A DNA stretch of 64,000 bases from a virus (Duplodnaviria; Heunggongvirae; Uroviricota; Caudoviricetes). The DNA lies in the IMG/VR virus record IMGVR_UViG_3300031999_000011, one strand, 5' to 3'. A program made the position numbers and the translations under genes. A model generated the notes under the pieces. That model saw only the letters and a program-made list of their open reading frames with translations, was not told where the DNA came from and ran no database searches. Shown one piece after another: positions 3,209 to 57,985 of this stretch. Positions within the stretch are counted from its first letter, which is position 1. The number at the start of each line of letters is the position of its first letter.

Positions 3209-4387
3209 GTGGACTGTATGGAAGTCTTTATCTGTGGTGGTGCTGTTCGTGACGTAATCATGGGTCACGAACCAAAAGACATTGATTTTGTGGTCGTAGG
3301 TTCAACTCCTGCAGAAATGATTGCAAATGGTTTTAAACAAGTAGGTGTAGATTTTCCTGTGTTTTTGCATCCTAAGACTGGTGAAGAGTGGGCACTCGCA
3401 AGAACAGAGAGGAAAATCTCAGTTGGTTATAACGGTTTTACATGTGAGACAACTGATGTCACGTTGATACAAGACTTGTCACGCAGAGATTTATCTTGCA
3501 ACTCAATGGCTGTTAGAATCGAAGATTGGGCAGAATTCAAAAACACTAAAAGTGCGCATTTGGTTATAGATCCATTTTGGGGTCAAGCTGATATACATTG
3601 TGGTATATTGATTCATACCAGCGAAGCTTTTTCAGAAGACCCAATTCGGGTACTTCGTGTATCTCGCTTCGCTGCGAGGTACAACTTTGCTGTTGCACCT
3701 GAAACAATGCAGTTGATGTCTGATATCGTACATGAACTTGATCATGTACCAACAGAACGAATCTGGATGGAGTTTGAAAAAGGCTTGATGGAAGATCATT
3801 CACATAGGATGATTGAGGTCTTGCATGAAGTTGGTGCATTTCACGTTAAAGTCATGCAACCATTTAATCGTGCTCCTGATATGTGGCAACGTCCAAGTAG
3901 ATCTGATGTTTTGAAAAAAGCTGTTCATATTAAACATTTGCCATCCAGATTTGCTTTGATTGGTACAGGGTTTACAAAAGATGAATTTAAAACACACCGT
4001 ATTCCAAATGACTGTGCTGATATAAGTTTAATTATTAACAAACACGTTGAACGTTTGGCATTTTTTCATGTTTTTAATAAAGCTCAAAGATTGAATATTA
4101 TAATGGAATTGAGGGCAATACAACGACCTGTTGCATTTTTAAATCAGGTGTTTGATGTAGTAGATATATTGTTTGATGTGGATTGTACCATACATCGTGA
4201 TAAATTTTTTCAAGATATTAAAGATATTTCAAGAGTTGATGCTGCAGTTGTTGCTGAAAAAGCTAAAAAAGCATTTAACCCAAATGATATTTGGAGCTTA
4301 GGTACAACAATACAGAATGCAATCTTTAATGCAAGATTGGACATGATGGATGTTGATAAGCGTAATTGGGTAGTATCTGGTCAGTAA
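3209..4387 (+). CDS. cca: tRNA nucleotidyltransferase (CCA-adding enzyme) / poly(A) polymerase family
   Basis: N-terminal FICGGAVRDVIMG...KDIDFVV (GGxVRD...DxD class II nucleotidyltransferase head), RRD, ~390 aa. Confidence 0.85.
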   Translation: MDCMEVFICGGAVRDVIMGHEPKDIDFVVVGSTPAEMIANGFKQVGVDFPVFLHPKTGEEWALARTERKISVGYNGFTCETTDVTLIQDLSRRDLSCNSMAVRIEDWAEFKNTKSAHLVIDPFWGQADIHCGILIHTSEAFSEDPIRVLRVSRFAARYNFAVAPETMQLMSDIVHELDHVPTERIWMEFEKGLMEDHSHRMIEVLHEVGAFHVKVMQPFNRAPDMWQRPSRSDVLKKAVHIKHLPSRFALIGTGFTKDEFKTHRIPNDCADISLIINKHVERLAFFHVFNKAQRLNIIMELRAIQRPVAFLNQVFDVVDILFDVDCTIHRDKFFQDIKDISRVDAAVVAEKAKKAFNPNDIWSLGTTIQNAIFNARLDMMDVDKRNWVVSGQ

Positions 4388-13035: not shown

Positions 13036-13110
13036 GACGTGTTGGTATAGTGGTTGTTGCCCTGGTCTGCAAAACCAGTGAGAAGGGTTCAATTCCCTTA
13101 CACGTCTCCA
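13036..13110 (+). tRNA. tRNA-Cys (GCA), encoded CCA
   Basis: Acceptor GACGTGT/ACACGTC; anticodon stem CTGGT/ACCAG with loop CTGCAAA; T-arm AAGGG-TTCAATT-CCCTT; 3' T-CCA. Confidence 0.8.
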
Positions 13111-18627: not shown

Positions 18628-18702
18628 GGTAGATGAGCTAGTTTGGAATAGCGTGCGCCTGAAGAGCGTGAGAATAAGGTTCGAATCCTTGATCTACCAC
18701 CA
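18628..18702 (+). tRNA. tRNA-Phe (GAA), encoded CCA
   Basis: Acceptor GGTAGAT/ATCTACC; D-arm GCTA-GTTTGGAA-TAGC; anticodon loop CTGAAGA; T-loop TTCGAAT; A-CCA. Confidence 0.8.
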
Positions 18703-18710
18703 GAATTAAT

Positions 18711-18786
18711 TGGGCTATAGTGTAATTGGAAACACCTCACACTTTGACTGTGATATTGTTCGGTTCGAGTCCGGCTAGCCCTACCA
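18711..18786 (+). tRNA. tRNA-Gln (TTG), encoded CCA
   Basis: U1 start as in bacterial tRNA-Gln; D-arm GTGT-AATTGGAA-ACAC; anticodon stem TCACA/TGTGA with loop CTTTGAC; T-loop TTCGAGT; 1:72 U-U mismatch. Confidence 0.7.
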
Positions 18787-18858
18787 CTTTTAAAAAGATA
18801 AATAAGTAGATACACTAAAAGTAGTGGTTAAAATATAATATACGTAGGAGATTGTATA

Positions 18859-19245
18859 ATGATAAAATTAATATTTATAGCACTATTATGTGTTTTTGTT
18901 ACAGGTTGTGCATCAATGAGCAATTGGACGCCAACAGTTGATACATATAACGATAGACGTGCATCTCATATCCCGCAAGATCAAGCAGAGTGCAGACAAT
19001 TAGCATCTCAAGCATCTGGTGGAACAGTTAAAGAAACCTTTACCGGTGCAGGTGTAGGAGCATTAATAGGTGCAGCAGGTGGAGCAATCGCTGGAGCGTT
19101 TATCGGAAATCCAGCAACTGGTGCAGCGATTGGTGCTGCTGCAGGTGGTTTTGGTGGTGGTGCTGGATTGGGCTTCAACGCCGAGAACAATTATAAACAA
19201 TCATACAAAGTTTGTATGAGACACAGAGGTCATACAGTAATTTAG
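18859..19245 (+). CDS. OsmB/SlyB-like glycine-zipper outer-membrane lipoprotein
   Basis: Lipobox FVTGCAS; GAGVGALIGAAGGAIAGAFIGNPATGAAIGAAAGGFGGG glycine zipper; paralog of 33194..33673. Confidence 0.65.
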   Translation: MIKLIFIALLCVFVTGCASMSNWTPTVDTYNDRRASHIPQDQAECRQLASQASGGTVKETFTGAGVGALIGAAGGAIAGAFIGNPATGAAIGAAAGGFGGGAGLGFNAENNYKQSYKVCMRHRGHTVI

Positions 19246-19258
19246 TATGAAAAATTAT

Positions 19259-19336
19259 GCGCTCGTAGCTCAATTGGATTAGAGCATAGGATTTCTAATC
19301 CTATGGTTGGAGATTCGAATTCTCTCGAGCGTGCCA
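19259..19336 (+). tRNA. tRNA-Arg (TCT), encoded CCA
   Basis: Acceptor GCGCTCG/CGAGCGT; anticodon stem TAGGA/TCCTA with loop TTTCTAA; T-arm GGAGA-TTCGAAT-TCTCT; G-CCA. Confidence 0.8.
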
Positions 19337-19353
19337 AACATTAAAAGAATTAT

Positions 19354-19431
19354 GTCCATGTAGCTCAATTGGATTAGAGCATCGGTCTACGAAACCGAAG
19401 GTTATCCGTTCAAATCGGATCATGGATACCA
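19354..19431 (+). tRNA. tRNA-Arg (ACG), encoded CCA
   Basis: Acceptor GTCCATG/CATGGAT; anticodon stem TCGGT/ACCGA with loop CTACGAA; T-arm ATCCG-TTCAAAT-CGGAT; A-CCA. Confidence 0.8.
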
Positions 19432-19472
19432 AATGGTAAAAAAATGATATATAATATATCTTAATGAATAAT

Positions 19473-19548
19473 GCAGGTGTAGCTCAATGGGTAGAGCGCC
19501 GTCCTTCCAAGTCGGATGTTGCAGAATCGTCCTCTGTCACCTGCTCCA
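19473..19548 (+). tRNA. tRNA-Gly (TCC), encoded CCA; atypical T-loop ATCGTCC
   Basis: Acceptor GCAGGTG/CACCTGC; anticodon loop CTTCCAA; one mismatch in the anticodon stem; A54/U58 instead of T54/A58. Confidence 0.65.
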
Positions 19549-19555
19549 ATTTTAT

Positions 19556-19631
19556 GCTTCGTTAGCTCAATGGGTAGAGCACTGCATTGTCACTGCAGAG
19601 GCAGCGGGATCATAGCCCGCACGAGGCGCCA
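19556..19631 (+). tRNA. tRNA-Asp (GTC), encoded CCA; atypical T-loop ATCATAG
   Basis: Acceptor GCTTCGT/ACGAGGC; anticodon stem CTGCA/TGCAG with loop TTGTCAC; T-stem GCGGG/CCCGC; G-CCA. Confidence 0.7.
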
Positions 19632-19663
19632 AATATAATGTAATTATATCAATTAAATGATTT

Positions 19664-19885
19664 ATGAAATTTCACAAACTTGAAGTATACGTTTTCGATT
19701 TTGAAGAAGGTGATAATATTAAAGATATTATCGTTGAAATTGAACAAAATCGACATTTTAATATGGAAGTTAAAGCTCATCAAACAGTTGATATTGGTGA
19801 ATGGGATGATGATCATGAATTAAATCTAACACGCACTTCATTAGAACAGTTTAGAGCGTATTTTGAAAAGAATAATGTCGGGTGA
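19664..19885 (+). CDS. hypothetical protein
   Basis: 73-aa ORF lying between tRNA genes. Confidence 0.4.
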   Translation: MKFHKLEVYVFDFEEGDNIKDIIVEIEQNRHFNMEVKAHQTVDIGEWDDDHELNLTRTSLEQFRAYFEKNNVG

Positions 19886-19922
19886 TACTCATGTGAATCC
19901 GTGAGTCTGGTTATAATTAAAT

Positions 19923-20000
19923 GGGCCTGTATCCCAATTGGTAAGAGGACACCGGCTTAGACCCGGTGTGTTGGAGATTCGAATTCTCTCAGGCCTACCA
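19923..20000 (+). tRNA. tRNA with anticodon TAG (Leu, reads CUA) but class-I short variable loop; encoded CCA
   Basis: Acceptor GGGCCTG/CAGGCCT; 3-bp D-stem; anticodon stem ACCGG/CCGGT with loop CTTAGAC; variable GTGTT; T-arm GGAGA-TTCGAAT-TCTCT; A73-CCA. Confidence 0.6.
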
Positions 20001-25103: not shown

Positions 25104-25949
25104 ATGTTTGATTCACCAGTTGTACCAAAATCGTTTTTTATGAATGTTGGAGAGAACTCAGCAAATATTGCATTGAGTTTAACTGTAGCAAAAGAGAAAG
25201 TGATAGTACGTATAACAGGTGGTTGTGGATATATGAGTGTAGAAGATGCTAATGGGTTGTATGATCTATATAGTCAAGCGTTTAGTGGATTTAACGGTGT
25301 GATGTTGTTTGGTGGTACTCGTATGGTTAGCAGGATAGACCGAAATACGGTCATTCCAGGTATAACTGAAGTTGTTCCTCGTATTAAGCATGAAAATCCA
25401 GGTTGTGTTGTTTTAGGAGTTGTTCCAAGAACAGAGGATGTTAAACTGGATACAACTTATGGGTTTATTATTTCAGACGATAATAACCCGTGGATAACTA
25501 TTCCACATCCAGATCAAGATTTTTTTGTAATTGTACAACGTTCAGTAGATCAATCAGCTGATTGGAATGATGAATGGCAAGAATGTTATAATGTAACAAA
25601 ACGATTACGAACCTATTGTGATTGGACTTCATTATTAATTGCATATAATGGCGGTGGAGTTACTGAAAAAGAAATACTTACAATTGCAGCAGCTGGTTGG
25701 CCTGTATTGTTGGTTAATGGTGGAGGTAGGAAAACAGATGAGTATGCTGCAAATGAAGAATTTTTAGCAGCACATCCAAATGTAAGAGTATGTGAAAAAA
25801 ATGTAAGAGATTTTAGAAATACATTGATTGAAATGGGTATACTACTTGGGTTTAGGAAATCTTTAAATCTACAAGTAGTAAATGGTGGTAAAATTAATTT
25901 AAGAGAGTATATTAATTATGAACATAACAGCACAAACAGTAATAAATAA
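25104..25949 (+). CDS. LOG/SLOG-like Rossmann-fold protein (tandem paralog A)
   Basis: RITGGCGYMS (compare LOG GGGxxGxMG) and LLVNGGGRKTDE (compare LOG PGGxGTxxE). Confidence 0.55.
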   Translation: MFDSPVVPKSFFMNVGENSANIALSLTVAKEKVIVRITGGCGYMSVEDANGLYDLYSQAFSGFNGVMLFGGTRMVSRIDRNTVIPGITEVVPRIKHENPGCVVLGVVPRTEDVKLDTTYGFIISDDNNPWITIPHPDQDFFVIVQRSVDQSADWNDEWQECYNVTKRLRTYCDWTSLLIAYNGGGVTEKEILTIAAAGWPVLLVNGGGRKTDEYAANEEFLAAHPNVRVCEKNVRDFRNTLIEMGILLGFRKSLNLQVVNGGKINLREYINYEHNSTNSNK

Positions 25950-26694
25950 GTCGGGTAAAGTTGATTTATTTGTATCAGAAAGCAGTGGAGTTTTACCTGC
26001 TAATTATATGTTAGTGGCAACAAAAGCTAAGTCAAAAGTTGCACTACGTATTGCAGGTGGTTGTAAAAATATGAGTGAGCAAGATAAGTTAGATATGCTT
26101 GATTTTTTTGCTACCGCTTTAATTGGATATTCAGGTGTTCTTTTTTCTGGAGCGACTCGACAATTAACAGCTGATGGTTTACTGGATCCAATGGTGACTG
26201 ATGTTCCTGGTTATGTTGCTCAAAAAAATGATGGTATAATTGCATTAGGTACAGCACCACGCACTGATGCTTGGTCATTACAAGGTGAATCTGCATTTAT
26301 ATTAGATGGATATGGTACAAGACCAAACCCAACAATGGATGCTATTTTATTAGTACAAGATGGTCCTGATGCAACATTAGATTGGGATGGAGATGTACCA
26401 GTTTATTTGAAAATTATGGAATCTTGGAGAAGTTATGCTGGTTTTGAACATGTTGGTTTAATTTCGTGGAACGGTGGCGCAGTCACAGAAGCTGAATTTA
26501 GAGCTACTGCTAACCGTAAATGGCCTACCATATTAATACAAGGTTCTGGTCGTGCTACTGATGATGCTATTCAAGCAATAGTAGGAGAATTACCGGGTGC
26601 GTTACAAGGTGATCATGTATATGTTGTTGATAAGTCTGATCCATTAGCATTACGACAACTTTTAATCGATAATGGTTTTATATTAATTATTTAG
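25918..26694 (+). CDS. LOG/SLOG-like Rossmann-fold protein (tandem paralog B)
   Basis: RIAGGCKNMS and ILIQGSGRATDD; overlaps paralog A by 32 nt; same length and architecture. Confidence 0.55.
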   Translation: MNITAQTVINKSGKVDLFVSESSGVLPANYMLVATKAKSKVALRIAGGCKNMSEQDKLDMLDFFATALIGYSGVLFSGATRQLTADGLLDPMVTDVPGYVAQKNDGIIALGTAPRTDAWSLQGESAFILDGYGTRPNPTMDAILLVQDGPDATLDWDGDVPVYLKIMESWRSYAGFEHVGLISWNGGAVTEAEFRATANRKWPTILIQGSGRATDDAIQAIVGELPGALQGDHVYVVDKSDPLALRQLLIDNGFILII

Positions 26695-30589: not shown

Positions 30590-30826
30590 AATATTATAAA
30601 TCTCTAGTAAATCCTACTGATTTTCTTATATAAGTATTTATAATTTATACATAATATGAATAATGTACAATAAGCTATAAAAACAATAAAGTAACAGTGG
30701 ATTTATTTAAATAAATATGTTATAATTATCATATATTATTTAATTATGAATAATATGTGAATTATTACCTTTATTGACTTTAATTTATGTGGTGTTAGTC
30801 AATCACCGGTTTCAAAGGAGAAAAAA

Positions 30827-31578: not shown

Positions 31579-31842
31579 ATGAATATACAAGAAAAACCTA
31601 ATATGACTTTTAGTATAACTAGTAACCGGGTTACATTAATTATAACTACTATTTGTATAGTAATTGCAGTTTTTTGTGCTGGTATGTTATTCGAAAAATA
31701 TTTGCATGAATTTACTGATTATGAATTAATGATAATAGAATTGATGATTAATTCACCAGATACAACAGAATCAGCTGATATTAATGAAAGTGAAGAGGAA
31801 GATGGCGGTATTATGAGTTGTAGTAAGGAAACAGAATGTTAA
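31579..31842 (+). CDS. small membrane protein
   Basis: TM ITTICIVIAVFCAGMLF. Confidence 0.4.
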   Translation: MNIQEKPNMTFSITSNRVTLIITTICIVIAVFCAGMLFEKYLHEFTDYELMIIELMINSPDTTESADINESEEEDGGIMSCSKETEC

Positions 31843-32138
31843 AAGGTGAGATGCAATCTACAATTATTGGAATTATTATAACTGTGATAGTGGTTATATT
31901 AATAGTTACATTTATATATATGTCATATAATAATGAGAATAAATTAACTCAAACTACATTAACATCAACTGAATTTGTATTGGAAAGTAAAGTAAAAATT
32001 AATATACCGGAACTTGAGGATTGCACACTGTATACACTTACGTACGAGACAATAGCTTGGCCAATACGTGTTATCCGGTGTGCTAACTCAATATCTACAC
32101 AAATTAATGATAATATTTCTATAATTGCAAATGATTAA
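31836..32138 (+). CDS. small membrane protein
   Basis: TM IIGIIITVIVVILIVTFIY. Confidence 0.4.
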   Translation: MLKGEMQSTIIGIIITVIVVILIVTFIYMSYNNENKLTQTTLTSTEFVLESKVKINIPELEDCTLYTLTYETIAWPIRVIRCANSISTQINDNISIIAND

Positions 32139-32185: not shown

Positions 32186-32512
32186 ATGAAACGTTTAATA
32201 TTAATTGGTATATTGTTATGCAGTATATCAGCATATGCATATGGTCACGGTTACGGAGGTGGTTGGAGTAATAATGGGCAAAATGCTTACAATAATCAAA
32301 ATTGGAGCAATCGTCAATGGAATGCTACTATTCCAGGATATAATGTTCCTTATCGTTATTATGGTTACGGTTATACACCTTACCCTTATTATCCCCAACA
32401 GTATTATGGTTATCCCCAACCGTATTATGGTTATCCACAACCGTATTATGGTTATGGTGGTGCACAATTTGGTATTTCAATACCTGGTTTCAGTTTATTT
32501 TTTGGTAATTAA
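32186..32512 (+). CDS. secreted Gly/Tyr/Pro/Gln-rich repeat protein (paralog 1 of 3)
   Basis: Signal peptide; YYGYPQP repeats; C-terminus GISIPGFSLFFGN. Confidence 0.6.
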   Translation: MKRLILIGILLCSISAYAYGHGYGGGWSNNGQNAYNNQNWSNRQWNATIPGYNVPYRYYGYGYTPYPYYPQQYYGYPQPYYGYPQPYYGYGGAQFGISIPGFSLFFGN

Positions 32513-32538
32513 ATTTATTACCTAATAGGAGTGTTAAA

Positions 32539-32862
32539 ATGTATAAATTAACAATACTAATAATAGTATTATTTTTTAATGTGGTAGTCTATGCAGACGG
32601 TGGGGAACATCATGGTCACGGTGGATATGGTGGGGGTTGGGAAGGACATCATGGTCACGGTGGATATGGTGGGGGTTGGGAAGGACATCGTGGTGGTTGG
32701 GGAGGACATCATGGTGGATATGGACGTCAACTATATTACCCTTATCCTTCATACCCACAATATCCTATAATTCAACAACCTTACTACCCACAACAGTATT
32801 ATGGTTATGGTCAACAATTTGGTATTATAGCACCTGGTGTTAGTATATTTTTTGGTAATTAA
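32539..32862 (+). CDS. secreted Gly/His/Tyr-rich repeat protein (paralog 2 of 3)
   Basis: Signal peptide; [13 protein letters not shown] repeats; C-terminus [13 protein letters not shown]. Confidence 0.6.
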
Positions 32863-32888
32863 TTTATTATGATATTAAGGAATATAAA

Positions 32889-33191
32889 ATGTATAAGTTA
32901 TTATTAATACTGTTATTGTTTAGTGTATTAGTATACGCTGACGACGACGATGACGATGACGATGATAATGGGAGATATCAACAAGGTTATAGTTATTCAA
33001 TACCAACATATGGATATCCACAAGGTTATGGATATCCACAAGGTTATGGATATCCACAAGGTTACGGATATCCACAAGGTTATGGATATCCACAAGGATA
33101 CCGGTATCCACCACACGGTTATAGATATCACCCAAGACAAGGTGGCGTACAAATAATTGTACCAGGATTATATTTAAATTTTGGAGGATAA
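32889..33191 (+). CDS. secreted poly-Asp plus (YPQGYG)n repeat protein (paralog 3 of 3)
   Basis: Signal peptide; D9 tract; six YPQGYG repeats; C-terminus [12 protein letters not shown]. Confidence 0.6.
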
Positions 33192-33193
33192 TA

Positions 33194-33673
33194 ATGAAAT
33201 ATTTAATAATAGTAATGTTGTTGTTAGTTGGTTGCGCAAGTGAAAGTGGTTGGGTTCCAACTGTCGACACATCATATCAACCACAACAACAACAATATCA
33301 ACCACAACAACAATATCAACCACAACCTGGAGCGCCATCAGTGCAGCAAGGTGGATATGTACCGGAAGTACAACAAGGTTATGATCCGAATGCATACAAT
33401 CAGGCAATGGTTGAATGTCAGATGCTTGCTAAACAGGCATCTGGTGGTACATTCAATTCAACTATTACTGATGCTGCAGGTGGTGCTTTATTAGGTGCTG
33501 CAGGTGGAGCAATTGTAGGAGCATTCACAGGAAACCCTGGAACTGGAGCTGCTATTGGTGCTGCTGCAGGTGGTTTTGGGGGAGGTACATATGGTGGATT
33601 AAGTTCCAATGCAACTTATAAAAGTGCATTTTCAAATTGTTTAAGGCAAAGAGGTTATCGAGTACTCAATTAA
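33194..33673 (+). CDS. OsmB/SlyB-like glycine-zipper lipoprotein with Q-rich linker (paralog of 18859..19245)
   Basis: Lipobox LLVGCAS; QPQQQQYQPQQQYQPQ; LLGAAGGAIVGAFTGNPGTGAAIGAAAGGFGGG; conserved C-terminus ...C..RG..V. Confidence 0.65.
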   Translation: MKYLIIVMLLLVGCASESGWVPTVDTSYQPQQQQYQPQQQYQPQPGAPSVQQGGYVPEVQQGYDPNAYNQAMVECQMLAKQASGGTFNSTITDAAGGALLGAAGGAIVGAFTGNPGTGAAIGAAAGGFGGGTYGGLSSNATYKSAFSNCLRQRGYRVLN

Positions 33674-33878
33674 CGCATATATGGAACTATTAAACGATTT
33701 TTTTTGTAGTTATTTGATATAATAAATATACATGAAGTTATACTATTTGTTAGCAAGCATATATTTAAAATATTGCTGTTAATTATACGATAAAGGGGTT
33801 ATAATATGAGAGATGGAAATCAAAATATAGTAGTTATTATTGTTGTTTTATTAGTTCTTGTGGTTCTAGGAGCATTAG

Positions 33879-34322
33879 GTGCCTTACAACCACTTTATTT
33901 ACCATTTTAGGAGCATACAAATGAAGTATTTTTTATTATTATTGTTTATGATTCCGTGTATTAGTATAAATGCGGGATCACAAGCAACAGATGTAAGTAT
34001 TGAGGCTGGTGTTGTCAATAAAGATTTAACGGTAGAGTCAGAGTATCCATCTTCAGCTGATACTTCTACAGAATTATTGGTTGCACCACCTTCAGATGTT
34101 CATGTTATTTGTGATGATAATTGTGTTAACAGTGAACCCAAACAATTAGATAATAAAAGTGTAAAGATTATTCCAGTACAACCTGTAGTTGTACCAATTA
34201 TAGCACCAGTGTTAACTATACAAAAACCTCAAGTTGTAAAACACACTAAAAATAAATCGAAAAAAGTAATGAAAACAAAAGCGAAATTAGTATCAGAAGA
34301 AGGTTGTAAACCGGCAAAATAA
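33879..34322 (+). CDS. secreted protein
   Basis: Signal peptide MKYFLLLLFMIPCISINA (internal ATG at 33921 is the probable start). Confidence 0.5.
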   Translation: MPYNHFIYHFRSIQMKYFLLLLFMIPCISINAGSQATDVSIEAGVVNKDLTVESEYPSSADTSTELLVAPPSDVHVICDDNCVNSEPKQLDNKSVKIIPVQPVVVPIIAPVLTIQKPQVVKHTKNKSKKVMKTKAKLVSEEGCKPAK

Positions 34323-35095: not shown

Positions 35096-35369
35096 TCTTA
35101 GAACATTTCCCCGTTCTCAACAAACTATTAGTACTATAAAAGATTTAGATGAACTTTTTGATAAGTGGATTGGGATACAAAAAGATGATTATATTGTTAG
35201 TATAGAAGAGATATTCTGTTATGTATCACTTGAATTCGCACAACAATATTATTTAAAACATTTAATGCGTGATAACATTCCTGAGAACAGGGAATATATG
35301 TTTAAACCTATAGAGCATATTCCTGGTATATATAAAGTAACCGCAATGTATATAAAGTGTACAGAATAA
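35082..35369 (+). CDS. hypothetical protein
   Basis: 95-aa ORF. Confidence 0.45.
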
Positions 35370-35719
35370 TTATTATGCTTATAACGAAATTAAAATCTAA
35401 GATACATAGGGTTACGGTAACAGACTCAAATTTGTCATATGAAGGATCTTGTGGAATTTCTATTGATTTATTGCAGCTTGCAAATATACAATCATATGAG
35501 CAAATTCATTTATATAATGTAAATAATGGAGAACGATTTACTACGTATGCAATAGAAGGTGAACCTAATATAATTTCAGTTAGAGGAGCTGCAGCTAGAA
35601 AAGCAGTTGTTGGTGATATATTAATTATATGTACGTATTGTCAAATATCAGAAGATAACGATTATCAACCAATTAATGTTTATGTAGACTCACAAAATAA
35701 TCCAATGTCTAATATATAA
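35357..35719 (+). CDS. panD: aspartate 1-decarboxylase (pyruvoyl-dependent), PanD
   Basis: [33 protein letters not shown]...[12 protein letters not shown]...[16 protein letters not shown] aligns with E. coli PanD (KLHRV.VT.ADL.YEGSC.ID, G-S cleavage site, NG.RF.TYAI). Confidence 0.85.
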
Positions 35720-46482: not shown

Positions 46483-47430
46483 ATGTTAGATTTAATTATG
46501 CAAATTGTGATCGGTTATATCCGGTCTATTTCTGTTTCAAGTAACTTGATGATTGTAGTGATATTAATAGTATTTTCAATATTATTAGTATACGAAACAT
46601 TACATCCTAGAGAAAAATATCCAACAAAAAACTTATATCAATCATATAAAACAAATATTGGTATGTTTATTGTTAACACCATAATTTTGTCTGTATTATC
46701 TGCATCATCGTTACTATTATTAGTTGATGTACATTCATATAATGGAATATTTAACTTTATAACCAATAATAATGTTAAAATTATAGTGTCATTCTTATCA
46801 TTAGATTTATTGTTGTATTATTGGCATAGAATCTGTCATGAGTATGATAGGTTATGGATGTTTCATAGAGTACATCATAATGATTCATATTTAAACGTAT
46901 CAACTGCATTTCGTGTACACTTTATTGAATTATTTTTTACAAATGTATTAAAAGTAGTATTTGTAACAATAATAGGTATTAATGGGTTTATATTATTAAT
47001 ACATGAATTGATAACTATTTTATTTGTTATGGTTCATCACACTAATGTTAGTATTAAATATGAAAATATATTAAGTAAATTATTTATTGGGCCATCACTA
47101 CATCAAACACATCACTCTATGAATAGAGAGGAACATGATAGTAATTATGGTGCGATATTTTCTTTTTGGGATAGAGTGTTTGGAACATTATTAGAGACAA
47201 GTACAGTTAAAATTGGTATTAAAGGGTATTCTCCACAAAGTCTTATAAATTTAATAAGTTTTGGTTTTACTACCCCTGTTATACAACTGAAAAAACCTAC
47301 AATTGCAATAGAAGATATGATACGAGTGGCAGCGTATTATAGGGCAGAAAAACGTGGTTTTATTCACGGAAATGACCAATATGATTGGTTTATTGCAGAA
47401 CGTGATATTCATAATACAATAATTGTGTAG
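46483..47430 (+). CDS. fatty-acid hydroxylase superfamily (sterol desaturase / C4-methyl oxidase-like di-iron membrane oxygenase) fused to a C-terminal DUF2934-like motif
   Basis: His boxes HRICHE, HRVHHN, HHTNV, HQTHHS on a four-TM scaffold; C-terminal AAYYRAEKRGF.HG....DWFIAERD; strong SD AAGGAG. Confidence 0.75.
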   Translation: MLDLIMQIVIGYIRSISVSSNLMIVVILIVFSILLVYETLHPREKYPTKNLYQSYKTNIGMFIVNTIILSVLSASSLLLLVDVHSYNGIFNFITNNNVKIIVSFLSLDLLLYYWHRICHEYDRLWMFHRVHHNDSYLNVSTAFRVHFIELFFTNVLKVVFVTIIGINGFILLIHELITILFVMVHHTNVSIKYENILSKLFIGPSLHQTHHSMNREEHDSNYGAIFSFWDRVFGTLLETSTVKIGIKGYSPQSLINLISFGFTTPVIQLKKPTIAIEDMIRVAAYYRAEKRGFIHGNDQYDWFIAERDIHNTIIV

Positions 47431-54487: not shown

Positions 54488-55345
54488 ATGACAACATTTA
54501 CATTATCAATAACAGATGCTCCAACTGGAGATTTTAATTTATACATGCGAGCTATTCGCCGTGTTCCGAGATTAACAAAAGAACAAGAATATGAATTAGC
54601 TATAAAATATAAAGAGTATAATGATATATCTGCGGCTCAAACATTAATTTTATCTAATTTACGATTTGTGGTGTATATTGCTAAAACATTTAAAAAATGT
54701 AATATTCCATTGTCTGATATAGTACAAGAAGGTAACATTGGATTGATGAAAGCTGTATCTAATTTTGATCCATACGCAGGTGTTAGATTAGCGTCATATG
54801 CAGTATATTGGGTAAAAGCAGCTATAGTTGAATATATTATAAAGAATAATAATGTGGTTAAAACTATATTATCAAAGCCTCATCGAAAAGTGTTTTTTAA
54901 TATTAACAAATATATTAAAGAAGGTGAACAATTAACTGCCGACTTAGTTAATACAATAGCGACAGAGTTATGTGTTACTACACGAAATGTGTATGATGTT
55001 ATTGAACGTATGTCTCATCGTGAAGTACCTTTTGACTTTACTGATGATGTATCAACTAATTTTTCACTTGCAGAAATATTAACGTCTTCAGATGTTGACC
55101 CGGCTAAGATCATTGAACAAGAACAAGAATTAAAGTGGCAATATGAAATATTAACAAAAGCGTTACAACAATTAGATGCACGTAGTTTAGATATTATTAC
55201 TTGTAGAAAATTAATAGATCCCCCGATGACATTTAAAGAATTAGGAGTGAAATATCATTCCACTCATCAAAATATTGAACAAATTGAAAAACGAGCGATG
55301 AAAAAAATAAAGAATTTTATACAAAACGAGGTTAATAATGTTTAG
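54488..55345 (+). CDS. sigma-70 family RNA polymerase sigma factor (RpoD/RpoH-like regions 2 and 4)
   Basis: DIVQEGNIGLMKAVSNFDPYAGVRLASYAVYWVKAAIVEYI (regions 2.2-2.4) and MTFKELGVKYHSTHQNIEQIEKRAMKKIKN (region 4.2 HTH). Confidence 0.85.
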   Translation: MTTFTLSITDAPTGDFNLYMRAIRRVPRLTKEQEYELAIKYKEYNDISAAQTLILSNLRFVVYIAKTFKKCNIPLSDIVQEGNIGLMKAVSNFDPYAGVRLASYAVYWVKAAIVEYIIKNNNVVKTILSKPHRKVFFNINKYIKEGEQLTADLVNTIATELCVTTRNVYDVIERMSHREVPFDFTDDVSTNFSLAEILTSSDVDPAKIIEQEQELKWQYEILTKALQQLDARSLDIITCRKLIDPPMTFKELGVKYHSTHQNIEQIEKRAMKKIKNFIQNEVNNV

Positions 55346-57259: not shown

Positions 57260-57985
57260 ATGAGTATAAGAGATAATTTAGGAAATCGTATGAAAAAATA
57301 TGAAACTGTTCATACTAATTTTTTAATGCGTAGAACACCTGTAATAATTCGTATTGATGGTAAGGCTTTCCATACATGGACGAGAAATTGTGAGCAACCA
57401 TTTGATGAAATGTTACACGAATCAATGAAAGCTACTATGCGTTTTTTAGTTAATGAAATGCAAAATGCAGTTTATGGATATACTCAAAGTGATGAGATTT
57501 CAATTCTATTATGCGATTGGTTGACATTTACTACTGAACAATGGTTTGATGGTAATATTCAAAAAATTGCATCTGTATCAGCTAGCCTTGCAACAGGTAT
57601 ATTTAACGCAATTCCAAACAATCATACCTCGCAACTTGCGTTTTTTGATGCACGGGTTTTTAATGTACCTTTTGCTGATGTACATAATTATTTCTTGTGG
57701 AGACAACAAGACGCTACTCGAAATTCAATTCAAACATACGCACGTGCTTACTTTTCTCATAAAGAGTTACACAAAAAATCTTGCAATGAAATTCAACAAA
57801 TGTTGTTTGAACAACATGGTGTAAACTGGAATGATTTAGATGTTTGGAAAAAACGTGGTTCACATGTTTATCGAGTACCTGATGAAGTACAAGGTGGTAC
57901 TTGGATGTATCATACTGAAATGCCAATTATTAATAAAGACTTCGCCGCGTTTGGACCCATAAATACATATTTAAAAATGGAGTAA
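57260..57985 (+). CDS. tRNA-His guanylyltransferase (Thg1) / Thg1-like 3'-5' polymerase
   Basis: IIRIDGKAFHTWT (compare VVRLDGRNFHRF), YGYTQSDEISIL (AYGQSDEYSFV), YFLWRQQDATRNSI (YLSWRQADCHINNL). Confidence 0.85.
   Translation: MSIRDNLGNRMKKYETVHTNFLMRRTPVIIRIDGKAFHTWTRNCEQPFDEMLHESMKATMRFLVNEMQNAVYGYTQSDEISILLCDWLTFTTEQWFDGNIQKIASVSASLATGIFNAIPNNHTSQLAFFDARVFNVPFADVHNYFLWRQQDATRNSIQTYARAYFSHKELHKKSCNEIQQMLFEQHGVNWNDLDVWKKRGSHVYRVPDEVQGGTWMYHTEMPIINKDFAAFGPINTYLKME

Follow-up and report, generated by a model that had tools for sequence, protein, structure and literature searches.

The 64,000-nucleotide (nt) stretch of DNA analysed here (the window; IMG/VR record IMGVR_UViG_3300031999_000011) carries on its + strand three tandem genes for small secreted repeat proteins, which we call P1, P2 and P3, followed directly by a gene for a glycine-zipper lipoprotein, LP. 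P1 (32186..32512; 108 amino acids, aa) is rich in Gly, Tyr, Asn, Pro and Gln, P2 (32539..32862; 107 aa) is rich in Gly, His, Tyr and Trp, and P3 (32889..33191; 100 aa) combines a D9 tract with (G)YPQGY repeats. LP (33194..33673) encodes 159 aa and starts 2 nt past the P3 stop codon. The intergenic gaps between P1 and P2, P2 and P3, and P3 and LP are 26, 26 and 2 nt, and each of the four genes has a Shine-Dalgarno-like motif 6-10 nt ahead of its ATG. Signal peptides, like the lipobox of LP, were read from the sequence and not from a predictor. That of P1 (32186-32239) is MKRLILIGILLCSISAYA, with cleavage predicted before YG; for P2 (19-residue signal) and P3 (17-residue signal) cleavage is predicted before DG and DD, respectively. 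In all three signals, K/R close to the N-terminus is followed by a hydrophobic core and then by (A/V)-x-A (AYA or VYA) ahead of the cleavage site. The source of the window is a large uncultured phage, near-identical copies of which are carried by 11 metagenome contigs of up to 120 kb.

Gly makes up 19-32% and Tyr 15-23% of the mature proteins, whose bodies are built from different short tandem repeats, all read on the + strand. A 21-bp repeat (32389..32455; 3.2 copies, 95% identity) encodes YYGYPQP of P1 (twice), a 39-bp repeat (32607..32694; 2.3 copies, 97% identity) encodes a 13-aa unit of P2 (twice), and an 18-bp repeat (33009..33129; 6.6 copies, 87% identity) encodes GYPQGY of P3. The chemistry of the bodies differs from one protein to the next, being Asn/Trp-rich, His-rich and Asp-rich in P1, P2 and P3, and His/Gln/Arg-rich bodies also occur among the phage homologs described below. 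An earlier note on this DNA, made from its letters, had described three tandem secreted open reading frames (ORFs) with signal peptides and differing short repeats, and both the coordinates and the sequence agree with that description, which is correct in essentially every detail. One exception is the repeat count of P3: the YPQGY repeat and the D9 tract are present, and the number six is slightly generous, there being five units, four of them a perfect YPQGYG, plus degenerate copies. The repeat-number polymorphism that the note proposed to look for exists, at the 39-bp repeat of P2. A 94-aa P2 variant that is exactly one 13-aa unit short, the indel being in frame, is found on 3 contigs; P1-P3 are otherwise invariant across the near-identical contigs. 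Searches of P1-P3 against Pfam, NCBIfam, PHROGs and PADLOC gave compositional noise only (GRP, Fungus-induced, phrog_17393), the phrog_17393 match covering just the signal peptide and the D-tract.

What the three proteins share, apart from their signals, is the C-terminus. The tail of P1, QFGISIPGFSLFFGN (32465-32509), has 15-residue counterparts in P2 (32815-32859) and P3 (33144-33188), all on the + strand, and the pattern PG[FVLAI][SYN][LIF][FN]F[GSR] was found only at these three ends in a six-frame translation of the window (about 128,000 codons). In tail alignment the C-terminus of P1 reads AQFGISIPGFSLFFGN, and those of homologs in the related uncultured phages L040, L110, L112 and L113 read SPSIGITLPGASFFFR, AQIGINVPGFSIFFSN, AQIGISVPGFSFFFGN and AQIGISIPGFNLFFSN. 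The phage consensus is (A)Q-[IF]-G-I-x-[IV]-P-G-F-[SN]-x-F-F-[GS]-N-COOH. The tails of P1 or P2 are identical to that of L110 at 9-10 of 14 positions, while the bodies are only 20-46% identical. The earlier note had held that the tail is conserved on divergent bodies and had named absence of the motif from related phages as the observation that would speak against this; four phage-lineage homologs keep the tail, and a related form of it is present in hundreds of bacterial proteins. We also scanned for a degenerate DNA version of PGxS[LI]FFGN-stop. It had no match in IMG/VR, and in metagenome contigs it had 33 matches, all out of frame or due to chance, the metagenome collection having returned no in-frame contig, even this phage's own.

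The tail is predicted to be structured where the body is not. An AlphaFold2 monomer model of the L040 homolog, run with a 117-sequence family alignment, has a helical signal peptide, a body with a predicted local distance difference test (pLDDT) score below 50, and a pLDDT of 81-88 over the last 35 residues. In this model the tail is a β-hairpin of two strands, IGITL and ASFFF, with a PG turn. The element shared by the family, G-hydrophobic-x-hydrophobic-hydrophobic-hydrophobic around a Pro/Gly turn, is accordingly modelled as a β-hairpin. Read from the sequence, the hairpin has one wholly hydrophobic face and one made up of small or polar residues plus Phe. Since a five-residue hydrophobic hairpin would not be stable alone, it presumably docks on a partner, on a membrane or on itself. 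That the body is nearly freely rewritten, and the signal peptide and 14-residue hairpin tail are not, points to the tail as the working part of these proteins.

The earlier note had seen in the C-terminus a sorting or anchoring signal, or a β-strand for outer-membrane insertion. A β-strand or anchor is a reasonable description of the predicted hairpin; a sorting signal is not. No NCBIfam match to a C-terminal sorting signal (PGF-CTERM, PEP-CTERM, GlyGly-CTERM, LPXTG) was obtained at E <= 1, and for PGF-CTERM in particular the chain ends 6 residues past P-G-F and has neither a membrane helix nor a basic tail there. As the canonical end of an outer-membrane protein the tail does not qualify either, lacking the terminal Y-x-F.

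LP has the lipobox LLLVGC|A, a Gln/Pro/Tyr-rich linker, and a glycine-zipper domain between helices that carry a Cys pair (C75, C149). It matches the Pfam models Gly-zipper_OmpA (PF13436; E = 3.3e-10, 40.0 bits against a cutoff of 27) and Gly-zipper_YMGG (PF13441; 2.2e-7, 30.9 bits, cutoff 28.9), and C14, C75 and C149 are invariant in a 45-sequence alignment. The lipobox and the above-cutoff matches bear out the claim that a glycine-zipper lipoprotein directly follows the block. The label OsmB/SlyB-like is only approximate: the OmpA and YMGG zipper models match, but LP has no match at E <= 1 to the SlyB model (PF05433, glycine zipper 2TM), nor to any PDB sequence. We class LP as a new phage-borne member of the glycine-zipper lipoproteins, and not demonstrably as a SlyB. 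In the contig population, a variant of LP is missing six Gln/Pro residues of the linker. The paralog reported within the transfer RNA (tRNA) array is real (18859..19245, + strand; 128 aa). It lies between tRNA-Gln (18711-18786) and tRNA-Arg (19259-19336), has no Gln/Pro linker, is 45% identical to LP (E = 1e-15), and matches PF13436 at 3.5e-7 (30.3 bits, cutoff 27). Its match to the model of the EexN entry-exclusion lipoprotein (E = 0.02, 14.8 bits) is below the cutoff of 33.

The nearest cellular relatives of LP are 131-aa Methylococcales proteins annotated as glycine zipper family proteins, 61-66% identical over the zipper domain; the genes of the Methylobacter homologs lie after an ABC/FtsX transporter pair. 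Judged by these relatives, LP is a captured host gene. It shares with its class (PF13436, PF13441; SlyB, YfgH, OsmB, YiaD), as does the paralog, the lipobox and the GxxxG/A zipper, and differs in having a Gln/Pro/Tyr linker absent from the 131-aa host homolog, in being phage-encoded, and in being paired with hairpin-tailed proteins. A further observation concerns two bacterial lipoproteins, P0128 and P0129 (164-166 aa), which carry a GYGYPQPYGYNPYGYPQPQYYPP-type Tyr/Pro/Gln stretch and a glycine-zipper domain (PF13441, PF05433, PF13488) in one chain. Together with the linker of the phage LP, which its host homolog lacks, such fusions may hint that low-complexity stretches and zipper domains work together.

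Direct protein search being nearly blind for P1-P3, we used LP as the search handle and then fetched genomic contexts. A word-index protein search with P1 missed even P1 itself, for which the phmmer self-match is 2.8e-65, and absence from such a search is uninformative; low-complexity searches are insensitive in general, and the family may be commoner in phages than it appears. In every readable related phage contig a family gene lies immediately upstream of the LP homolog. L040 (LP identity 68%) has one 104-aa family gene with fully syntenic flanks, the P0006 contig (54%) has two ORFs of 104 and 119 aa in the same position, known from position and size, and L110 (53%) has one 100-aa family gene (75-377). 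L112 and L113 (50% and 49%) are short contigs in which only the 3´ end of the upstream gene is visible. The link between repeat proteins and glycine-zipper lipoprotein drawn in the earlier note holds in this sense: all phage lineages found to have the family have the two side by side, with 1 to 3 family copies next to LP. The signal peptides of L040 and P1 agree at 12 of 18 positions and the L040 mature N-terminus resembles that of P2, which suggests that a single ancestral gene became three in the window phage. The homologs of L110, L112 and L113 also have a conserved Cys pair (C-D-P-Y-Y-x-x-C) just ahead of the tail, absent from P1-P3 and L040.

LP homologs occur without any family gene in the unrelated large phages L044 and L109. 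In L044 (1975-2519), which encodes a T4-type RNA ligase 1, the LP homolog follows a spanin-like pair consisting of a 90-aa charged protein and a 90-aa lipoprotein that starts at the stop codon of the preceding gene. A scan of IMG/VR with the LP alignment found one unrelated phage, with LP only, and IMG/VR scans with a neighbouring gene and with the bacterial-family profile found nothing. Neither megablast nor tblastn against GenBank phages found relatives of the cassette region, of LP or of the L110 homolog.

Searching with a profile of P1-P3 recovered bacterial proteins of the same layout besides the L040 homolog (E = 3.2e-8). The bacterial family, found in Methylococcales and Betaproteobacteria, is large, with 645 representatives of 50%-identity clusters at E <= 1e-3 and 79 at E <= 1e-10 (HMMER), and 54 loci in a scan of species-representative genomes. 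It includes Methylobacter tundripaludum, M. psychrophilus, Methyloglobulus, Methylomonas, Methylotenera and Rhodocyclaceae, as well as Burkholderiales, Thiobacillaceae, Sulfuriferula, Herbaspirillum, Paralcaligenes and Nevskia. The bacterial members are 90-140 aa long. Behind the signal peptide the mature protein often starts with ADRDD; a stretch rich in His, Arg, Asp, Gly, Trp and Tyr follows, and the C-terminus is Y-[VA]-P-P-P-V-Y-Y-x-P-x-Q-S-P-G-I-S-L-F-F-P-L-[DN]-[LIF]-R-(R)-COOH, in which the Gly is invariant. This tail pattern is present in 186 of 205 sequences, and in 180 of the 186 the protein ends 11-13 residues past the invariant Gly. No Pfam or NCBIfam model matches any tested bacterial member, a PDB profile search with the family gave signal-peptide-level noise only, and a full-text literature search for the bacterial tail motif found no paper. 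As far as these searches reach, this is an undescribed and unmodelled bacterial periplasmic family.

Membership of the phage proteins was assessed with a hidden Markov model (HMM) built from the 205 bacterial sequences only and run on 501 six-frame segments of the window, among which it matches just P2, P3 and P1. In a companion test the signal peptide was kept and the mature part shuffled with its composition preserved (500 trials). The L040 homolog (E = 5e-16) and P2 (E = 5e-9; z = 5.8) had scores that none of the 500 shuffles reached, compared with 2 of 500 for P3 (E = 0.008) and 3 of 500 for P1, whose E-value of 0.19 is marginal. The HMM aligns the bacterial sPGIsLff to IPGFSLFF and APGVSIFF of the phage. 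The G-[IV]-[SN]-[LI]-[FV]-[FL] element with its invariant Gly is present in the phage copies, 1-2 residues from the C-terminus as against 6-7 in bacteria. The PVYVPPPVYY segment is absent from P1-P3, which have YYGYPQP, YYPQQ or YPQGY repeats instead; L040 has PVYVPPPGYY and L110 PIYVAPPVV. Homology to the bacterial family is solid for L040 and P2, and transitive for P1 and P3, P1 being linked to the family through P2 and L040. P1-P3 are not phage inventions but diverged copies of a widespread unannotated proteobacterial family, a point that the earlier note had missed.

The bacterial and phage proteins (examples of the former are P0127 in GCA_000733835.1 and the copies in Methylobacter tundripaludum SV96, Methyloglobulus morosus KoM1 and Paralcaligenes ureilyticus DSM 24591) have in common a signal peptide, an acidic mature start (ADRDD, ADDDD, ADGGE), a low-complexity His/Gly/Trp/Tyr/Asp body, a Tyr/Pro/Gln-rich stretch, and a strictly C-terminal G-hydrophobic-S-hydrophobic-F-F element. 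The phage copies differ in their short signal n-regions, more Gly and Tyr, almost no Arg, and an additional G-I-x-hydrophobic-P half-motif ahead of the tail. They end in FF[GS]N, FFFR or NFGG, in contrast to FFPLDLRR in the bacterial family. The neighbouring gene differs as well, being LP for the phage copies and an LTXXQ gene for the bacterial ones. LTXXQ (PF07813) is the family of Spy, CpxP and ZraP. In 47 loci the next gene upstream, on the same strand and at a median distance of 80 nt, is of this family (2.2e-11). The pairing is seen in at least 47 of the 51 loci having enough upstream sequence, and 4 of 8 exceptions have no upstream sequence on the contig. BON, CsbD and OmpA-like genes recur nearby in a minority of bacterial loci, and the gene context as a whole suggests that the bacterial family is periplasmic and belongs to an envelope-stress type of setting. 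A scan upstream of the bacterial LTXXQ genes showed no CpxR, sigma-E or sigma-54 motif, and no LTXXQ homolog was found in the window, L001, L040 or L044. In one genome (GCA_000733835.1, locus L048, 5440-8246) a gene for a BPSS1818-domain protein and a divergent cation-efflux (CDF) gene come after the LTXXQ/family pair, and two transposase genes flank it. Such neighbours are not a conserved feature of the 54 loci.

P1-P3 are, then, tandem paralogs of a bacterial family of small proteins with Sec export signals, a predicted-disordered body and a hydrophobic C-terminal element. With relatives of LP in Methylococcales and the family of P1-P3 in bacteria, both halves of the module appear to be of host origin, and the phage probably infects a Gram-negative bacterium of Methylococcales type. 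The tail variant tracks the neighbouring gene, FF[GS]N-COOH occurring with LP and FFPLDLRR-COOH with LTXXQ, and we infer that the tail is a docking element whose partner differs between bacteria and phage. SlyB and YfgH, of the same class as LP, are reported to stabilise the outer membrane specifically under stress, forming rings that enclose lipids and outer-membrane proteins (bioRxiv 10.64898/2025.12.22.696046). Given such ring-forming stabilisers, stabilisation or receptor masking would be the most economical outcome. The interpretation that we prefer, while giving it slightly less than an even chance, is that P1-P3 and LP form a host-derived envelope module that conditions the envelope of the infected cell, with the chains docked by their hairpins on LP or the outer membrane. 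In this model, P1-P3 would be exported and their signal peptides cleaved, LP would be located in the outer membrane of the infected cell, and the hairpin tail would dock each disordered chain onto LP or onto the membrane beside it. The Gly/Tyr/His/Asp-rich chains could then build a periplasmic layer beneath the outer membrane. Acting with the LP zipper, this layer would cushion the envelope against stress, buffer cations and preserve the membrane until the cell lyses, and it might also protect the cell from other phages. Repeat slippage would diversify the bodies fast, and selection would hold the signal peptide and the tail.

Several points weigh against this interpretation. The hairpin is taken from a monomer model with a predicted template modelling (pTM) score of 0.21, and the AlphaFold2 model of LP is of low confidence (pLDDT 54), showing only the two flanking helices that bear the Cys pair. 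The function of SlyB and YfgH would extend to LP by analogy of class, LP having no match to the SlyB model, and docking of the tail on LP is suggested by gene adjacency and by the tail variant that tracks the neighbour. P1 and P3 fit the bacterial HMM only marginally, the PVYVPPPVYY segment being lost. The phage is uncultured, and it is homology that points to its putative host. The three bodies are chemically different, with no single ligand evident, and scans for promoters and terminators gave no promoter or regulatory motif for the module. As for the cell-surface or periplasmic coat or exclusion layer that the earlier note had proposed, no result supports it.

Among the other explanations, the one we take most seriously, while considering it unlikely, is superinfection exclusion, in which LP would mask or enclose an outer-membrane receptor protein, much as Llp of phage T5 blocks FhuA or a SlyB ring surrounds outer-membrane proteins, and the disordered proteins would thicken or lock the shield. 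The fast change of the repeats would then reflect conflict among competing phages, consistent with the hypervariable bodies and the copy number of 1 to 3. LP-type genes have been captured independently by several unrelated large phages and are duplicated in the window phage, SlyB-class proteins are reported to enclose outer-membrane proteins, and the LP paralog has its weak, sub-threshold EexN match (E = 0.02). However, known exclusion proteins were not matched above threshold, PADLOC found nothing for P1-P3 or LP, and the bacterial homologs are in stress-type operons, not in prophages. We regard as less probable still that the proteins are periplasmic cation buffers, with Cu, Zn, Ca or lanthanide ions bound by the His/Gly/Trp repeats of P2 (which recall the prion octarepeat), by the D9 tract of P3 and by the bacterial members rich in His, Asp and Arg, and the phage thereby adjusting metal supply or toxicity in a methanotroph-type host. 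His makes up 10% of P2 and Asp 11% of P3, bacterial bodies are His/Asp/Arg-rich, the zinc-binding ZraP is of the same family as the LTXXQ partner, some partners have His-rich C-terminal tails, and the CDF cation-efflux gene of one genome is about 1.3 kb away. Metal-type neighbours are not conserved across loci, though, and P1 has one His and no acidic tract; the conserved tail and the pairing with LP would also go unexplained. Metal-induced small secreted repeat proteins are known as a class, such as CopQ and CzcJ (PMC2864759), but the family is not homologous to CopQ.

The tail itself suggests a different role, in which it would imitate the C-terminal β-signal of outer-membrane proteins and engage BamA or BamD, throttling or redirecting the assembly of these proteins, or using the β-barrel assembly machinery (BAM) merely as a docking site. 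The published β-signal consensus is polar-x-G-x-x-[aromatic/hydrophobic]-x-[aromatic/hydrophobic] (PMC10945584), and the C-terminal peptides of lectin-like bacteriocins inhibit BamA by mimicking it (bioRxiv 10.64898/2026.09.25.754295). The bacterial S-P-G-I-S-L-F-F fits all specified positions, all phage tails hold the G-x-x-hydrophobic-x-hydrophobic core 1-2 residues from the C-terminus, and a β-strand tail is predicted on what should be a periplasmic protein. Yet the consensus is loose, a chance fit being easy in a hydrophobic strand, and the phage tails fit the GxxΦxΦ core only (Φ, hydrophobic): the phage copies have I, A, L or V at the first position, where the consensus is polar, and do not end in an aromatic residue. 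Bacterial members, moreover, carry a further PLDLRR past the motif. We consider such mimicry improbable. We would attach the same low probability to its most far-reaching form, that an unrecognised family of disordered periplasmic proteins engages BAM through the S-P-G-I-S-L-F-F strand, and that the phage's captured, tripled, re-tailed and LP-coupled copies control outer-membrane protein assembly. In that case the Spy/CpxP-like chaperone would restrain the family proteins in bacteria, and the phage might gain, for example, a block on receptor display or a remodelled outer membrane. The cluster of seven or more consecutive envelope-targeted small genes, and the position of the L044 LP homolog after a spanin-like pair, might instead suggest a lysis accessory that disrupts the outer membrane late in infection as a spanin substitute or helper. 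This is quite improbable: endolysin or holin family matches are lacking beside the cluster, LP has a homolog of host housekeeping type and no spanin features, P1-P3 are neither cationic nor amphipathic-helical like known outer-membrane disruptins, and the bacterial relatives are clearly not lysis genes. Least credible of all is that P1-P3 are non-functional low-complexity ORFs born of DNA repeats, with their shared ends a remnant of recent duplication. The DNA repeat units are indeed 87-97% identical, and antisense and off-frame ORFs are likewise open across them. The conservation data already contradict this view, frame, signal peptide, Shine-Dalgarno motif and tail being kept in phage lineages whose LP is only 49-68% identical. 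There are hundreds of bacterial homologs as well, and the one observed indel is in frame and comprises one whole unit.

Some known systems resemble parts of the proposed envelope module. Like the outer-membrane β-signal and its mimics (lectin-like bacteriocin peptides, darobactin), the tail of P1-P3 is predicted to be a short C-terminal amphipathic β-strand, with a G-x-x-hydrophobic-x-hydrophobic core; unlike them, it comes without a barrel, its last residue is non-aromatic, and in the phage copies it no longer begins with a polar position. The metal-induced CopQ, CzcJ and MmmQ of Cupriavidus and Ralstonia are similarly small, repetitive and stress-linked, with a signal peptide, but this is analogy only: they are confined to these two genera, have no conserved C-terminal hairpin, and CopQ-like proteins are defined by 3-4 repeats of an RDXXTDG motif (PMC2864759) that, by inspection, is absent from P1-P3. 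Another group recalls the periplasmic layer envisaged here. The sulfur globule proteins SgpA/B are small exported Gly/Tyr-rich structural proteins that coat a periplasmic body; their C-terminus differs from that of P1-P3, which have no match at E <= 1 to the corresponding Pfam model (SGP, PF17228), and the match of one bacterial family member is at noise level (E = 0.76).

Capture of host envelope genes by phages is already known; what is new here is the particular family, with its tail and its zipper-lipoprotein partner. Neither Pfam nor NCBIfam has a model for this family of at least 645 clusters, whose small periplasmic proteins are tightly linked to Spy/CpxP-like genes in Beta- and Gammaproteobacteria, major methanotrophs among them. 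It was the phage copies that exposed the family, and they act as a natural experiment on the constraint of body versus tail. The swap of partner, from LTXXQ in bacteria to LP in phages, together with the tail variant, yields a testable hypothesis of partner-specific docking. Metabolic genes such as pmoC have been the main concern of work on phages of methane oxidisers to date (PMC7674155), and an envelope-directed, host-derived module would join the repertoire of large freshwater and sediment phages that probably infect these bacteria. If it is true that the tail engages BAM or nucleates a periplasmic layer, this would be a new viral way to manage the Gram-negative envelope.

The four genes lie within a long + strand block that begins after a divergent intergenic region (about 30590-30826), and their small neighbours are of a similar kind. 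Directly upstream of P1 are two genes for single-pass membrane proteins of 87 and 100 aa (31579..32138, +), with syntenic counterparts of 95 and 100 aa in L040 and the P0006 contig. Directly downstream of LP (33806..34322, +) come a 34-aa hydrophobic peptide and a 133-aa secreted protein, which are conserved with the cassette and have counterparts of 34 and 128 aa in L040. The 34-aa peptide (window 33806-33910, +; L040 6634-6738), which ends in ...GALG(A/G)LQPLYLPF, is kept straight after LP in both phages, and a family-model search with it gave no match. Together, the flanking small genes, P1-P3 and LP are one conserved cassette of envelope-targeted genes.

The window as a whole has a G+C content of about 30%. 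It codes for an HNH homing endonuclease, Sir2, a GTP cyclohydrolase and a Band-7 protein, and a 355-aa ORF shares 48% identity with a protein of the T4-like Caulobacter phage Cr30. The mid-sized window ORFs scanned included neither pmoC nor any other methane gene. An RpoH-like (sigma-32 type) sigma factor gene (54488-55345, +) is 38-40% identical to bacterial RpoH, and in combination with host-derived envelope-stress genes it may be part of a broader takeover of host stress responses. Sigma-32 motifs were absent in the phage scan despite this gene, sigma-70-like sites in the window do not exceed shuffle expectation, and the T4 late promoter TATAAATA is not enriched in the window and has no instance close to the cassette. 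The tRNA array interrupted by the LP paralog gene comprises seven tRNAs (Phe, Gln, Arg x2, Gly, Asp, Leu; 18628-20000), and a tRNA-Cys is found outside it at 13036. With a CCA-adding tRNA nucleotidyltransferase (3209-4387) and a Thg1-like tRNA-His guanylyltransferase (57260-57985), the array looks like a tRNA maturation or repair toolkit. Two overlapping adjacent paralogs of 281 and 258 aa (25104-26694, +) both carry weak precomputed matches to the prokaryotic SLOG/LSDAT domain, for which the 258-aa product passes the Pfam threshold. An aspartate 1-decarboxylase gene, panD (35357-35719, +; Pfam 7e-38), is present in the same position in L040 and the P0006 contig, and is an unusual auxiliary metabolic gene of the β-alanine and CoA pathway. 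Finally, a fatty-acid hydroxylase superfamily domain fused to DUF2934 is encoded at 46483-47430 (+) and may be another envelope or lipid-modifying gene of the phage.

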